From the NCBI GenBank assembly GCA_964557535.1, contig CAZLAD010000004.1, positions 19,039-83,038 of the forward strand: 64,000 nt of DNA, read 5' to 3'. Shown piece by piece: positions 5,185 to 61,294 of the stretch (within the stretch, counting starts at the first letter, position 1; the number at the start of each line of letters is the position of its first letter). Source of the DNA: an uncultured Candidatus Saccharibacteria bacterium. GTDB lineage: Bacteria > Patescibacteriota > Minisyncoccia > Phycocordibacterales > CSBR16-119. Both the position numbers and the translations under genes were made by a program. The notes under the pieces were generated by a model. It did not search any database and had not been told where the DNA came from. It saw only the letters and a list, made by a program, of their open reading frames with translations.

Positions 5185-5439
5185 CTAGCTAATTGAATTC
5201 TTTATTCTCTTCTTAAGCTCTTTGTATCCCGCAGCAAAAGATTTTAGCATGTCTTCACGATGTCGTGCATCAGCTAAAGCCTTGTATGCCTCGTAATAAA
5301 CGAGCTCAAAAGGGGCTTTGTGTTTTGTCGAAAGATTCTTCTTTCCATTGTGTTCAGCAAAACGCCTTTTGAGATCATTTGTATACCCAATATATATCGA
5401 TTCGTCTACCCTGCTCTTTAAAATGTACACGTAAAACAT
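5185..5439 (-). CDS. GIY-YIG nuclease superfamily protein (UPF0213-like)
   Basis: 84 aa. MFYVYILKS...IYIGYTNDLKRRFAEHN is the GIY-YIG motif set. GC hairpin at 5146-5163 lies 3' of the stop. Confidence 0.85.
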   Translation of the reverse strand: MFYVYILKSRVDESIYIGYTNDLKRRFAEHNGKKNLSTKHKAPFELVYYEAYKALADARHREDMLKSFAAGYKELKKRIKNSIS

Positions 5440-9085: not shown

Positions 9086-9163
9086 GTAAAATCTGAATTT
9101 TCTGAACCCGAGGACATAGTGCGTAGACACGCTCCCGGAGGGTAAAGAAAATTCAGATTTTAC
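9086..9163. repeat. 17-bp perfect inverted repeat (GTAAAATCTGAATTTTC / GAAAATTCAGATTTTAC) enclosing a 44-nt loop with an internal GCGT-AGAC-ACGC hairpin
   Basis: Arms at 9086-9102 and 9147-9163. Immediately 3' of the uvrA stop (9175). AT-rich stem. Confidence 0.8.
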
Positions 9164-15355: not shown

Positions 15356-17427
<2,072 letters not shown>

Positions 17428-38809: not shown

Positions 38810-39286
38810 GCTGTGTCCTGCCGTAGCTTATTAAGCGAAGGCGGAATAATAATTATTAAAATTAACTCGACTCCAAAAAAGCAAAAGTCAACAAGGCTAC
38901 GACCTCATTGTCTCAATGATCTCTTGGTTTTATAAAATTTTACTTAGCAATGCTTTGTATTATTTACCCCGACCAAAGTGGAAGGGGCCGCGCCTATTAA
39001 TACAATTGCTTTTCCGCCAAAACTCAATCTGGGCAATTAGTTTCTCTAGTATATCCGAAATCTAAAATCTGTCAAACCGTACGACCGTTAAAAATATTGC
39101 GTTTAAAAACCAAGCTAGTTTGCCTTAAAAGTCCGTACTGTTTGAGAAGAGCTCAAGCTCTTCGAGTTTACGGATCTTTTTGGCTTAAACTAACTTGGTT
39201 TTAGCAAATATTTTTTCAGGTCAAAGGAGTTTTTGGTTACTTTTTTCTCCGTAAAAAAGTAACGTCCGGTCATCGCTTGCGATGGC

Positions 39287-49295: not shown

Positions 49296-49622
49296 TTAAA
49301 TTCCTTTTAGATCTTCCATCGTCTGGTCAACATCAGCAGATGCTACTGGTGTGCCCATTCCGGCTGGTTTGACATATCCTTCTGGTTCTTCGATTTTCAA
49401 GTTTACACGTGAATTGTTCTTCATACCGATGACTCGTAGAAGTGTACGCATAGCTTTCGCTGTGTTTCCTTGTCGGCCGATGATTTTGCCCATGTCTTCG
49501 CCATTTACTGACAAAGTTAGAAGCACTCCCATTTCGTCAACTTTTCTGTCGAGCTTTACATCATTTGGATGGTCTACTAATGCCTTTACTACATACTCTA
49601 GAAATTCCTGATCTCTTTCCAT
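49296..49622 (-). CDS. KH-domain RNA-binding protein (KhpA/YlqC-like); start at MERDQEF
   Basis: VDHPNDVKL...LSV...DMGKIIGRQGNTAKAMRTLL is the KH fold signature. Conserved position after rpsP. Confidence 0.8.
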   Translation of the reverse strand: MERDQEFLEYVVKALVDHPNDVKLDRKVDEMGVLLTLSVNGEDMGKIIGRQGNTAKAMRTLLRVIGMKNNSRVNLKIEEPEGYVKPAGMGTPVASADVDQTMEDLKGI

Positions 49623-49719
49623 AATTATCTGTCTACTATTTTCTAATGAACGCAGTTCTCTGACTAAGAAAACCTGCTGTGTACATTGTACCACGATTAA
49701 ATGAAAACAAAAAGCAGTA

Positions 49720-49797
49720 GCCGGCGAGGTTCGTTTGATTTCCGACCGTTTGGTTGGGTTAGGTTTGGAGGGAGTAAAGCAAATGAACCGAGCCGGC
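49720..49797 (+). ncRNA. Copy A of a repeated ~80-nt structured element (outer GC stem, tandem G.A, inner stem, G-rich interior), followed by TTTTT
   Basis: GCCGGC-GA-GGTTC ... GAACC-GA-GCCGGC closing helix. Internal GACC-GTTT-GGTT hairpin. Homologous to 60938-61022. Confidence 0.45.
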
Positions 49798-49808
49798 TTT
49801 TTAAATTA

Positions 49809-50111
49809 TTATTTTGCTTCGGCTTCTTTCTTGGCCTGCTTGGTGCGTTTTGGCAAGACGTTCTTTTTCTTGGCGTCGACGATTTTTTGATCTACGAGAA
49901 AATTGTGAATCGTTCCCGATGCCTGCGCGCCCATTTTCAGCCAGTACTTTATACGGTCGGCTTTCAATTCTACGAGACCAGCCTTTGGATTGTAATTGCC
50001 AAGAATTTCCTGGAATTTACCACTCTGAGCAGAATCTGTGGACTCAGTCAAAACAACCCGAAATGCCGGGGTATTTACGCGTCCAGTTCTTTGTAATCTG
50101 ATTTTTAACAT
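49809..50111 (-). CDS. rpsP: 30S ribosomal protein S16 (start at MLKIRLQR)
   Basis: MLKIRLQRTGRVNTPAFRVVLTES is the S16 N-terminus. The ORF track extends 12 codons upstream. Confidence 0.95.
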   Translation of the reverse strand: MLKIRLQRTGRVNTPAFRVVLTESTDSAQSGKFQEILGNYNPKAGLVELKADRIKYWLKMGAQASGTIHNFLVDQKIVDAKKKNVLPKRTKQAKKEAEAK

Positions 50112-59134: not shown

Positions 59135-59280
59135 ATTTTACCACACCAGGCAAAGAAAAATCCTCATAAAAAGGACTCTCGCAAGAAAAAGCCCGCCTTT
59201 TGAAGGGCGGGCTTTTCGAGAGGGAGAAGTTTGTCGTTTACAGACAAAACTTCGTGCCTTTTTATGAGTATTTTTCTTTG

Positions 59281-59973
59281 CTAATCCAACCACTTTTTTA
59301 GCTTGAGTGCTTCCTGAGCCGCAGCCTGCTCACCTTCTTGTTTGGATTTGCCGGAGCCTTTGGCAATAAGTTCATCTCCAAAAAATACACCGATAGTAAA
59401 ATTCTTATCATGGTCTGGGCCGGTTTCTTCAAGCACTTCATAGCGCGGCGTAATGTTCACAATCTCTTGAGCTTTTTCTTGGATTAGAGACTTGGAATCG
59501 CGCCAAAGTTTCTGAGCAACGATTTTTTCAATCTTGCCAAACAAAGCATCGGCTATGAATTTCTTGGCCGCATCATAACCAGCGTCTAGAAATATCGCGC
59601 CGATAACTGATTCGAAAGTGTTAGCGAGAATGTAGTCACGTGCCTTGCCTGTATCTTTGGCTTCGCCTTTGGACAAAAGAAGATAGTCGTTCATGCCAAG
59701 CTCCACCGCCGCAGCAGAAATCGAAACGGTATTAACGACAGCCGCACGGATAGCGGTTAGGTCGCCCTCTGATTTACCTGGGTAGCGTGCAAAAAGCTCT
59801 TCAGTTGTGACGAGTTCAAGCACCGCATCGCCCAAAAATTCTAGGCGTTCATTGTGAGACCCTGCACCAGCGTTTTCGTTTATATATGATCGATGAGTAA
59901 AAGCTTGTTTTAGTAGATCCTTGTCTTTGAAGTCTAAGTTATTTTCGGTTTCAAATTTCGCGAAGTTCGGCAT
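59281..59973 (-). CDS. rnc: Ribonuclease III
   Basis: 230 aa. ERLEFLGDAVLELV signature, C-terminal dsRBD. Confidence 0.95.
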   Translation of the reverse strand: MPNFAKFETENNLDFKDKDLLKQAFTHRSYINENAGAGSHNERLEFLGDAVLELVTTEELFARYPGKSEGDLTAIRAAVVNTVSISAAAVELGMNDYLLLSKGEAKDTGKARDYILANTFESVIGAIFLDAGYDAAKKFIADALFGKIEKIVAQKLWRDSKSLIQEKAQEIVNITPRYEVLEETGPDHDKNFTIGVFFGDELIAKGSGKSKQEGEQAAAQEALKLKKWLD

Positions 59974-59979
59974 AATTTT

Positions 59980-60879
59980 TTATTTATTGGTAACGTAGTC
60001 GATTGACTGCGCCAGAAGCGGCAGTATATCGTCGTAGGTGTTTATACTTTCTAATTCGGAGAGCTTGAACCACCTGGCGTCATCGAGTCCGCCGTTTGAA
60101 TGAAGGTCCATCTCCTTCCAGGGCGTCTTTACCAGATAGTAGCTAACCTGTTTTAGGATTTTACCTTTTTCCGGATGAGATGCAACATATTCATTTTCAC
60201 CCAAAAGTTTAACGATTTCGACATCCAGTCCGGTCTTTTCTTTTATCTCGCGGATTGCGCCCTCTTCGGAAGTTTCATTTCCTTCCACTCCACCCTTGGC
60301 TAGCGTCCAATAACCAAAAACATCGTGCACGAGCCCGACCAAAGTTTCTCCATCTTTCTCTGTAATGATTACTCCGCCGGCTTTCTTCTCTTTTGGAAGT
60401 TTTTCTGGATCGTCTTCGTTATTTGCGCGTTTCTTTGGAGTGATCTGATCTTTGCCTGGTTCCCCCATTTCTTTGTAAACTGCGCCCAAAACACCGTTGA
60501 CGAATTTGCCAGATTTCTCGCCACCGAAAGTTTTTCCAAGTTCGATGGCTTCGTTGATAGCAACCTTTGGCGGAACCTCATCTTTGTTTGAAAACAAAAG
60601 TTCAGCCAGACCAATGCGCAAAACATTGCGATCAACAATCGCAATTTTATCCATTGGCCAATCAGGCGCGGCTTTTTCTATGATCTCATCGATGAGAACA
60701 TATTTTTTTAAAACCTGATCAAGCAGGTGTTTGGTAAAGGAGACTTCTTTCATTCCTGGCGCAAACTCGGCAAGATTGCGTTCGAGATATTCTGGAGCAG
60801 ATTCATTTTTCTGCCCATTAAAATCCCACTCAAAAAGTGTTTGTAAAACGACTGATCGTGCAAGGTGCCTATTGGCCAT
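59980..60879 (-). CDS. nusB: NusB antitermination factor fused to a C-terminal NUDIX hydrolase domain
   Basis: aa 1-140 are NusB-like (ARSVVLQTLFEWDF...KFVNGVLGAVYKEMGE). aa about 165-299 carry a Nudix box GGVEGNETSEEGAIREIKEKTGL. Confidence 0.8.
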   Translation of the reverse strand: MANRHLARSVVLQTLFEWDFNGQKNESAPEYLERNLAEFAPGMKEVSFTKHLLDQVLKKYVLIDEIIEKAAPDWPMDKIAIVDRNVLRIGLAELLFSNKDEVPPKVAINEAIELGKTFGGEKSGKFVNGVLGAVYKEMGEPGKDQITPKKRANNEDDPEKLPKEKKAGGVIITEKDGETLVGLVHDVFGYWTLAKGGVEGNETSEEGAIREIKEKTGLDVEIVKLLGENEYVASHPEKGKILKQVSYYLVKTPWKEMDLHSNGGLDDARWFKLSELESINTYDDILPLLAQSIDYVTNK

Positions 60880-60937: not shown

Positions 60938-61022
60938 GTGCGAGGTTTGATTGTGATTTTCCGACCGTTTGGTCTGGTTAGGTTAGGAGGAAGGAAAATT
61001 ACAAGCAAACCGAGCGCGAGCC
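60938..61022 (+). ncRNA. Copy B of the repeated ~80-nt structured element, immediately 3' of rpmF
   Basis: GTGC-GA-GGTTTG ... CAAACC-GA-GCGC closing helix with a U.G wobble on the plus strand. Internal GACC-GTTT-GGTC hairpin and GGTTAGGTTAGGAGG tract. Confidence 0.45.
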
Positions 61023-61024
61023 AA

Positions 61025-61216
61025 TTACTTGGCTTTTGATTTCTTGTCGCTAGATTTAACAACTGCCAAGACTTGTTTGCCTCGGTATTTGCCAGTTTCG
61101 AGTGAGACGCGATGACGAAGATGAGGAGTATTTGTCTCCTTATCGATAACGATATTCGCCATCGGTGCTCTATGATGAGACCTACGATTTTTCGTATGGG
61201 CTCTTGTGTGTCGCAT
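61025..61216 (-). CDS. rpmF: 50S ribosomal protein L32 (start at MRHTRAHTKNRRSHH; the ORF track extends to 61336)
   Basis: KNRRSHHRAP...THLRH...YRGKQV matches the L32 consensus (K.S.SRR..RRAHHAL......TG..HLRHH....G.YRG..V). Confidence 0.85.
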   Translation of the reverse strand: MRHTRAHTKNRRSHHRAPMANIVIDKETNTPHLRHRVSLETGKYRGKQVLAVVKSSDKKSKAK

Positions 61217-61294
61217 TCGGACTACCATGGCAACCAGTATACGGAAAACAGGGATTTTTGCAAGTTTTTGAGCTTTTACACAATTGTCTGGATT

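Follow-up and report, generated by a model that had tools for sequence, protein, structure and literature searches.

The spacer between rpsP, which codes for ribosomal protein S16, and a khpA-like gene located downstream of it holds a long imperfect palindrome (copy A), and a homologous element (copy B) is found in the spacer between rpmF, coding for ribosomal protein L32, and a nusB-NUDIX fusion gene. A sequence-only reading of this DNA had proposed that the two elements represent a regulatory or antisense RNA that is tied to small ribosomal-protein genes. The question that this locus raises is whether copy A is indeed such a dedicated regulator or is better explained in another way. To address this question we utilize a combination of folding, covariance modeling and comparison of orthologous loci in related genomes, covering the whole 64,000-nt stretch of DNA (hereafter the window, to which all coordinates and strands refer unless another contig is named). 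On balance we consider it probable that copy A belongs to a small family of duplicative imperfect palindromes that is limited to a narrow clade and is analogous to REP, RPE and MITE-like repeats, and that it is not a ribosomal-protein-specific regulator. The features of the two loci are as follows.

49720-49797, plus strand (the G-rich strand): copy A, a 78-nt imperfect palindrome in the rpsP-khpA spacer
49720-49725 paired with 49792-49797: outer stem of copy A
49726-49727 facing 49790-49791: outer GA/GA loop of copy A
49728-49737 paired with 49780-49789: middle stem of copy A
49739-49743 paired with 49774-49778: inner stem of copy A
49744-49773, plus strand: apical module of copy A, kept in A, B, L007 and L017 (the last two being relatives described below)
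49748-49769: apical loop of copy A
49809-50111, minus strand: rpsP (S16), the upstream gene, with copy A at its 3' end
49296-49622, minus strand: khpA-like KH-domain gene, downstream of copy A
60938-61017, plus strand: copy B, an 80-nt paralogue in the rpmF-nusB spacer
61025-61228, minus strand: rpmF (L32), its stop codon within a small pre-existing hairpin, GCCAATTACTTGGC (61020-61033)
59980-60879, minus strand: nusB-NUDIX fusion gene, on the other flank of copy B

Copies A and B are homologous long hairpins

Copy A reads GCCGGC-GA-GGTTCGTTTG...CAAATGAACC-GA-GCCGGC on the plus strand, where it is followed by TTTTT, and the rpsP stop codon is located 11 nt from its end. Copy B has the form GTGC-GA-GGTTTG...CAAACC-GA-GCGC, is a little shorter than the 60938-61022 originally assigned to it, and is separated from the rpmF stop codon (61025) by 7 nt. 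The common core that had been recognized in the two hairpins is 88% identical over 40 nt, and exact matches of the 15-mer TTCCGACCGTTTGGT in the 64-kb window are limited to the A and B sites. For A and B, the plus strand folds with -35 and -38 kcal/mol and the minus strand with -25 and -24 kcal/mol (z from -4 to -7), which gives the plus strand an advantage of 10-13 kcal/mol. Against shuffled sequences A and B have z-scores of -5.1 and -7.2, respectively, with none of 200 shuffles folding as well. The closing stems also exhibit the compensatory change that had been claimed for them, with GGTTC/GAACC in A corresponding to GGTTTG/CAAACC in B. Copy A is additionally present in contigs L001-L006, which derive from the same species, and two of these have two substitutions in the copy A loop, one of which restores a C-G pair. 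The organism is represented in ERZ4208449, SRR12487045, DRR685533, DRR685535, DRR404984 and SRR12900997.

The statement that the elements match no known RNA family was checked against Rfam 15. A scan of the whole window at the gathering threshold returned two tRNAs only and left A and B unmatched, while local scans around A and B at E values up to 10 gave generic hairpin and miRNA noise of at most 19 bits versus thresholds of 43-150. We thus confirm that A and B are real, strongly folding, homologous long hairpins without an Rfam family.

Copy B is an insertion at rpmF

Comparison of the rpmF-nusB spacer with its counterparts in close relatives established that copy B is a clean 75-nt insertion. 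The element is missing from L181/L182, in which NusB is 91% identical, as well as from L179/L180 (87%), which belong to the same species as L007. The flanks of the spacer in both pairs align base for base with the window on either side of the element, and this places the insertion point between the rpmF terminator hairpin and the U-tract of that hairpin. There is a possible microhomology, AGCG, at the right junction. Alignment of filled and empty sites revealed no target-site duplication at copy B, and none is evident at the tgt locus described below.

The hairpin at the rpmF stop codon (GCCAATTACTTGGC, within window 61018-61035) is followed by TTTTGATTT on the plus strand. Relatives have an equivalent AAAGTAAATTACTTT hairpin at rpmF, indicating that the rpmF terminator overlaps the end of the coding sequence. 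On the other side of copy B, NusB and a NUDIX hydrolase form a fusion protein of 299 aa; in precomputed Pfam annotations, PF01029 and PF00293 are fused in 120 of the 120 homologues listed.

The rpsP-khpA spacer is variable among relatives

Searches with S16, Tgt and NusB assign the window to Patescibacteria, where its relatives are Paceibacteria/Nomurabacteria-like genomes. The rpsP site of these relatives is occupied as follows.

L007-L012 (S16 86%): hairpin with an entirely different 19-bp stem and a related apex, UUUUUC-GA-CU...GG-GA-GAAAAA; the A-type core is oriented as in copy A (L007)
L017 (S16 84%): another unrelated stem; the A-type core is inverted relative to rpsP
L174 (S16 81%): a different (U-type) hairpin
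L013, L019 and L022 (S16 77-82%): plain, short A-tract/hairpin/T-tract (bidirectional) terminators
L177 (S16 77%): no hairpin

Every hairpin at the rpsP site is flanked by an A-run and a T-run, with the khpA promoter (TGGTACAAT / TGGTATAAT) coming next on the sense strand. In the window, the khpA-like gene is served by an extended -10 box of its own, TGGTACAAT, at about 49688-49696 of the minus strand, just past the copy A hairpin. A and B are both stable stem-loops at the end of a transcription unit, as is characteristic of Rho-independent terminators. The L007 and L017 hairpins have immediate U-tracts on both strands. For copy A, UUUUU comes straight after the stem on the plus strand and UUUUUGUUUU is located 6 nt past the stem on the rpsP sense strand; given this spacing, copy A fits the canonical terminator poorly in the direction of rpsP. 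The sense-strand sequence after copy B is the U-rich UUAAGUUAUUUCUUUGUU. The terminator scan tool cannot score loops of more than 8 nt.

Diverged relatives near uvrA and within tgt

A covariance model (R1) was built from the A-type hairpins and run over the window without filters. This recovered two additional elements, designated T (34.9 bits, E = 4e-7) and U (25.5 bits, E = 2e-4).

9086-9163, plus strand: U, located 12 nt 3' of the uvrA stop codon; 18-bp stem GTAAAATCTGAATTTTCT/AGAAAATTCAGATTTTAC, GA/AA internal loop and ACCC/GGGT helix
16227-16312, plus strand: T, located inside the tgt ORF (15356-16666, minus strand); 17-bp perfect stem and GA/GA internal loop

The U loop (9108-9133; CCGAGGACATAGTGCRTAGACACGCT) matches the hairpin 3' of rpsP in L174 (L174 1137-1215) at 25 of 26 nt (E = 5e-6), so that one loop type is present at non-orthologous loci in different species. 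T has a motif in common with A and B, which takes the form AUUUUUC-GA-GUGUCUGGUUGAGG in T versus AUUU(U)CC-GA-CCGUUUGGUUGGG in A and B. Judged by the covariance-model scores together with such short motifs, T and U are probably homologous to A and B. The family in 64 kb would then have four members, of which A and B are closely similar and U and T more diverged.

T is contained within an in-frame segment of 96 nt (32 codons) that is translated as part of Tgt, and the closest tgt orthologue (L183, 95% identical) is without this segment. The insert is patchy among 23 orthologues, the proteins being either 402-410 or 436-448 aa in length. In those that have it, the residues on its flanks covary in the way expected from the arms of an inverted repeat (FSRSS...QTLE). 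A search of the T peptide against 1.84 billion representative proteins (50%-identity representatives only) returned one unrelated repeat protein and no other family.

Several further observations concern this region of tgt, the palindromic insert of which spans window 16199-16324. P0142, P0160, P0162 and P0167 have a second, different type of Tgt insert (ARPVRSSDE...EPIRAD) at this site. Additionally, other Paceibacteria have unrelated long hairpins at the same Tgt loop (L146 2890-3021; L148 3764-3892; L116 2824-2907; L151 10340-10393), with folding energies of up to -56 and -68 kcal/mol, and the L148 insert has an in-frame stop codon. The length of this loop in most genomes is just 15-60 nt. 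The Tgt loop appears to be a hotspot for palindromic inserts.

An apical module is conserved and strand-specific

The stems covary, as had been proposed. An alignment of five distinct A-type variants (A, B and three from relatives), on which RNAalifold was also run, has 96.5% of its cells paired and exhibits both-sided changes in 12 of 27 pairs. This value was reached by none of 500 shuffles, and slid controls gave at most 1.

No common sequence is found in the outer stems when the variants from the window, L007 and L017 are compared. All seven of the seven hairpins examined share an architecture in which a main stem leads into a GA/GA or GA/AA loop, a short helix and an apex. In the A-type variants, what is conserved is the apical module AUUUUCC-GA-CC...GG-GA-GGAAAAU, which is present on the G-rich strand only. 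This module is a helix broken by a symmetric 2x2 loop, in which 5'-GA faces 5'-GA (GA/AA in B). For example, the GA of CC-GA-CC (49744-49745) in copy A faces the GA of GG-GA-G (49772-49773), and the module is closed by CC/GG with 49746-49747 paired to 49770-49771. The approximately 22 nt that separate the two halves of the module drift across the variants.

These comparisons modify several details of the sequence-only reading. Its tandem G.A pairs in the closing stem are present in A and B but are limited to these two window copies, and it is the inner GA/GA loop that is kept across species instead. The inner CCGACC/GGUUGG hairpin that it described is not conserved. Nor is the G-tract pattern from which it suggested a G-quadruplex, as A, B and L017 have at least four GG runs (two tetrads at best) while L007 and U have only three. 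Its k-turn-like motif is rejected as well: 5'-GA/5'-GA mismatches between Watson-Crick helices are indeed a likeness to kink-turns and tandem sheared G.A motifs, but a kink-turn is defined by a 3-nt bulge that is missing here, the GA/GA loops being symmetric 2x2 loops.

The same reading had assigned the active strand from wobble pairs. We find that G.U pairs and G.A mismatches do occur on the plus strand only (G.U pairs are on the G-rich strand in 4 of 4 cases, with 0 A.C counterparts), and the strand asymmetry is real, but four G.U events make for a weak argument. The elements are furthermore G-rich on a strand that is otherwise C-rich (GC skew is negative throughout), and the G-rich strand is antisense to the neighbouring or host gene for all four of the four window copies. 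The strand-specific GA loops and G.U pairs suggest that the G-rich strand is under selection in a single-stranded form.

Distribution of the family

Pattern searches for members elsewhere gave few results. The exact core pattern CCGACCGTTTGGTNNGGTTAGG had 0 matches in metagenome_contigs and genome_contigs. A looser pattern, TTCCGACCN{18,26}GGAGGRAGGAAA, had 0 matches in viral contigs and 70 in the metagenome collection, and all but one sequence type among the latter were chance Shine-Dalgarno-like matches with no flanking stem. The one exception (L028 308-380 / L032 4098-4170) is a hairpin with a 15-bp stem and the loop-closing motif GAUUUUCC-GA-CC...GG-GA-GGAAAAUC. Its contig is 61% G+C and contains ORFs that, judged by eye from their translations, are SNF2-family-like helicase and glutathione-transferase-like. 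This resemblance may be due to convergence, chance or distant homology and is treated here as unproven.

The search for further copies with covariance model R1 was productive within the window, where it recovered T and U, and variants are also present in relatives, but the model had 0 matches among 80 loci from other Paceibacteria (1.3 Mb) and detected no new copies in 56 kb of close relatives. The elements were also unmatched when blastn was run against phages and plasmids, a strict script for hairpins with 2x2 loops was too rigid to inform, and a search of the literature on palindromic or MITE elements of Patescibacteria/CPR found nothing relevant. As far as sampled, which for this genome is about 64 kb, the family is that of a narrow clade and is low in copy number, with 2 (at most 4) copies in 64 kb.

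A probable family of spreading palindromes

Rickettsia, enterobacteria and Neisseria are known to have small dispersed palindromes that double as terminators and that at times form a translated part of conserved enzymes. What distinguishes a dispersed repeat is the occurrence of copies at non-orthologous loci together with presence/absence polymorphism, and both are observed here in the A/B and T/U sets, in the occurrence of the U loop in L174 and in the lack of B and T in the closest relatives. Sister species differ by the gain or loss of copies at precise sites, and the orientation of the element can flip. Intergenic copies would be kept at sites that tolerate or benefit from a hairpin, these being the positions of intrinsic terminators with an A-tract on one side and a T-tract on the other. 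At such positions the element would form the 3' end of the mRNA transcribed from the upstream gene (rpsP, rpmF or uvrA) and would probably function in part as a bidirectional terminator and as a barrier to 3'-exonucleases. Copy A would in this manner set the expression of rpsP apart from that of the downstream khpA-trmD genes, while the in-frame copy would be tolerated in a variable surface loop of Tgt.

The closest analogues are small bacterial repeats of the RPE, ERIC, Correia and YPAL type, which are long stem-loops with A-G mispairs that have intergenic and in-frame intragenic copies and whose transcripts can affect the mRNA of adjacent genes (PMC2229807). The family described here resembles RPE and ERIC, Correia/NEMIS, YPAL and RUP in consisting of short, dispersed, long stem-loops with non-Watson-Crick mispairs, in having intergenic copies as well as, in one case (tgt), what may be an in-frame fusion of this kind to a conserved protein gene, and in exhibiting filled versus empty sites between close relatives. 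It differs in length (66-86 nt versus about 100-200 nt), in its very low observed copy number, in the lack of terminal inverted repeats and of a TA or other target-site duplication, and in that the apical module is conserved rather than the ends. The host group, Patescibacteria, is also different, and the likeness is one of properties, as sequence homology is not expected. A classical MITE, with conserved terminal inverted repeats and a target-site duplication, is rejected since neither was found. Conserved termini or terminal inverted repeats are absent across the variants, no partner transposase was seen in the window, and the combination of a conserved apex with outer stems that are fully divergent between species is the reverse of what a classical MITE exhibits.

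REP and BIME elements are likewise imperfect palindromes at the 3' ends of genes with strand-specific imperfections, and roles in transcription termination and mRNA stabilisation have been proposed for them. REPs are, however, 20-40 nt in length, are present in hundreds of copies, are tagged by GTAG or CGTC and occur in association with RAYT genes (PMC3733652); in the window the tag is found at copy A only, the elements are 66-86 nt, there are few copies and no RAYT was seen in the ORF map. With bidirectional Rho-independent terminators the elements have in common an A-tract, a stem containing G+C and a T-tract at the end of a gene. They differ from these terminators in a total length of 78-80 nt, in 22-30 nt of apical sequence, in two internal loops, in the U-tract offset of 6 nt on the rpsP sense strand and in one relative being located within a coding sequence.

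To the extent of the searchable literature, such a family is apparently undescribed for the reduced genomes of Patescibacteria. Its recognition avoids the annotation of these hairpins as riboregulators of ribosomal-protein operons, and it provides natural filled and empty sites for studying the gain and loss of palindromes in ultra-small genomes. Among the by-products of the analysis, the in-frame copy in tgt stands out most.

Alternative explanations

The elements could instead be ordinary terminators that are inherited vertically without any mobility, with an apex recognized by a host factor (a termination, Nus or RNA-binding protein) and with B as a one-off duplication or gene conversion from A. 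Copy A is located exactly where relatives have A-tract/hairpin/T-tract terminators, the apex is conserved and the outer stem is replaced through compensatory changes, as if only pairing and apex matter, and the sites have no target-site duplication or transposase, with a possible AGCG microhomology at the B junction in place of a footprint of transposition. We nevertheless regard this explanation as unlikely. The U-type loop is common to the 3' ends of uvrA in the window and of rpsP in L174, a copy is in frame within tgt, a place in which termination would do harm, L017 has the core inverted, and B was inserted beside an rpmF terminator that already existed. These four observations point to repeated spread rather than to a single duplication.

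Neither a purely selfish repeat nor a terminator predicts the conservation of the apex rather than the termini, the strand-specific imperfection, the G-richness on an otherwise C-rich strand or the antisense placement. The invariant asymmetric module is the best candidate for a recognition determinant. It is conceivable, but rather unlikely in our estimation, that this module is the recognition element of an undescribed strand-specific system of Patescibacteria, involving either a mobility enzyme that acts on hairpin DNA or an RNA-binding protein, and that this system drives the hairpins to spread not only into terminators but also into coding sequences, an example being that of the Tgt surface loop. 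If such a system did exist, then the hairpin inserts that other Paceibacteria have at this Tgt loop would hint at a wider phenomenon, and the GA/GA module would offer a concrete handle for finding the factor that recognizes it.

The proposal with which the analysis of this locus began, that of a small structured RNA transcribed from the plus strand and thereby antisense to the operons of rpsP and rpmF, appears doubtful. The helix/tandem-GA/helix core of such an RNA might act, for example, as a protein-binding site or as a decoy containing GGAGG. In its favour are the 10-13 kcal/mol by which the plus strand of A and B folds better, the G.U pairs and GA/GA loops that make sense on the plus strand alone, the invariance of the module in four species variants, the UUUUU directly after copy A on the plus strand, the G-richness of the elements on an otherwise C-rich strand and the lack of a match to any known family. 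However, copy B is missing from both sister species, the core in L017 is opposite in orientation to rpsP, and other relatives have plain terminators or another type of hairpin at the site. T lies within a coding sequence, where an antisense promoter would be unlikely, and there are 0 homologues in the 1.3 Mb of other Paceibacteria. Furthermore, no promoter was detected on the plus strand in sigma-70 scans of A and B, and the apparent plus-strand terminators (the T-run after A and the GCCAATTACTTGGC hairpin after B) pre-exist in relatives that do not have the element. A dedicated regulator of ribosomal-protein genes is thus unsupported given the recent origin of copy B, an orientation that is not fixed, plain terminators in relatives, plus-strand terminators that pre-exist and the lack of a plus-strand promoter; the relatives at uvrA and in tgt and the variability of the rpsP site likewise go against a tie to these genes. 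An independent antisense sRNA gene is unlikely in view of the lack of a plus-strand promoter in these scans, the reversed orientation in L017 and the absence of copy B in sister species.

Quite improbable is the suggestion that the elements are single-stranded DNA hairpins for an HUH-type enzyme, acting in the manner of REP/RAYT or of an IS200/IS605 derivative, with the GA/GA loop marking the active strand and with spread mediated by the enzyme. Such an enzyme would fit the conserved, strand-specific imperfection of an otherwise perfect palindrome, the variable termini and lack of target-site duplication (as for REPs), the extragenic location at the 3' ends of genes, and a GTAG that precedes copy A and that is the tag of many REP families (PMC3733652). 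This tag, however, is missing from B, L007, L017, T and U, the elements (66-86 nt) are longer than typical REPs and low in copy number, no RAYT, TnpA or TnpB-like ORF stood out upon inspection of the window ORF map, and the G-rich strand would not be the predicted lagging-strand template here. A DNA-uptake sequence is rejected as the stems are without a common 10-12-mer and the density is far too low, and an integron attC site, a retron and a hammerhead core, judged from sequence only, do not fit.

Other structured sequences in the window

Three other long compound inverted repeats are located in or near intergenic spacers (window 59149-59281, 39106-39202 and 5298-5380). They have no detectable kinship to the A/B family, and both of their strands fold equally well. 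The repeat at 59149-59281, in the rnc-smc spacer, has 25-nt arms around two inner hairpins and a folding energy of -70 kcal/mol.

The 5' leader of the khpA-like gene (window 49623-49685, minus-strand sense) is strongly conserved in sequence in eight species, namely that of the window and those of L007, L013, L017, L019, L022, L174 and L177. It has no Rfam match. The conserved blocks are GYAGGTTTTCTTAGTCAGAGAACTGC...TTAGAAAA...AGATAA, and the leader, which is situated just downstream of an extended -10 box, contains a small hairpin closed by GCAG/CUGC. It is a candidate cis-regulatory leader.
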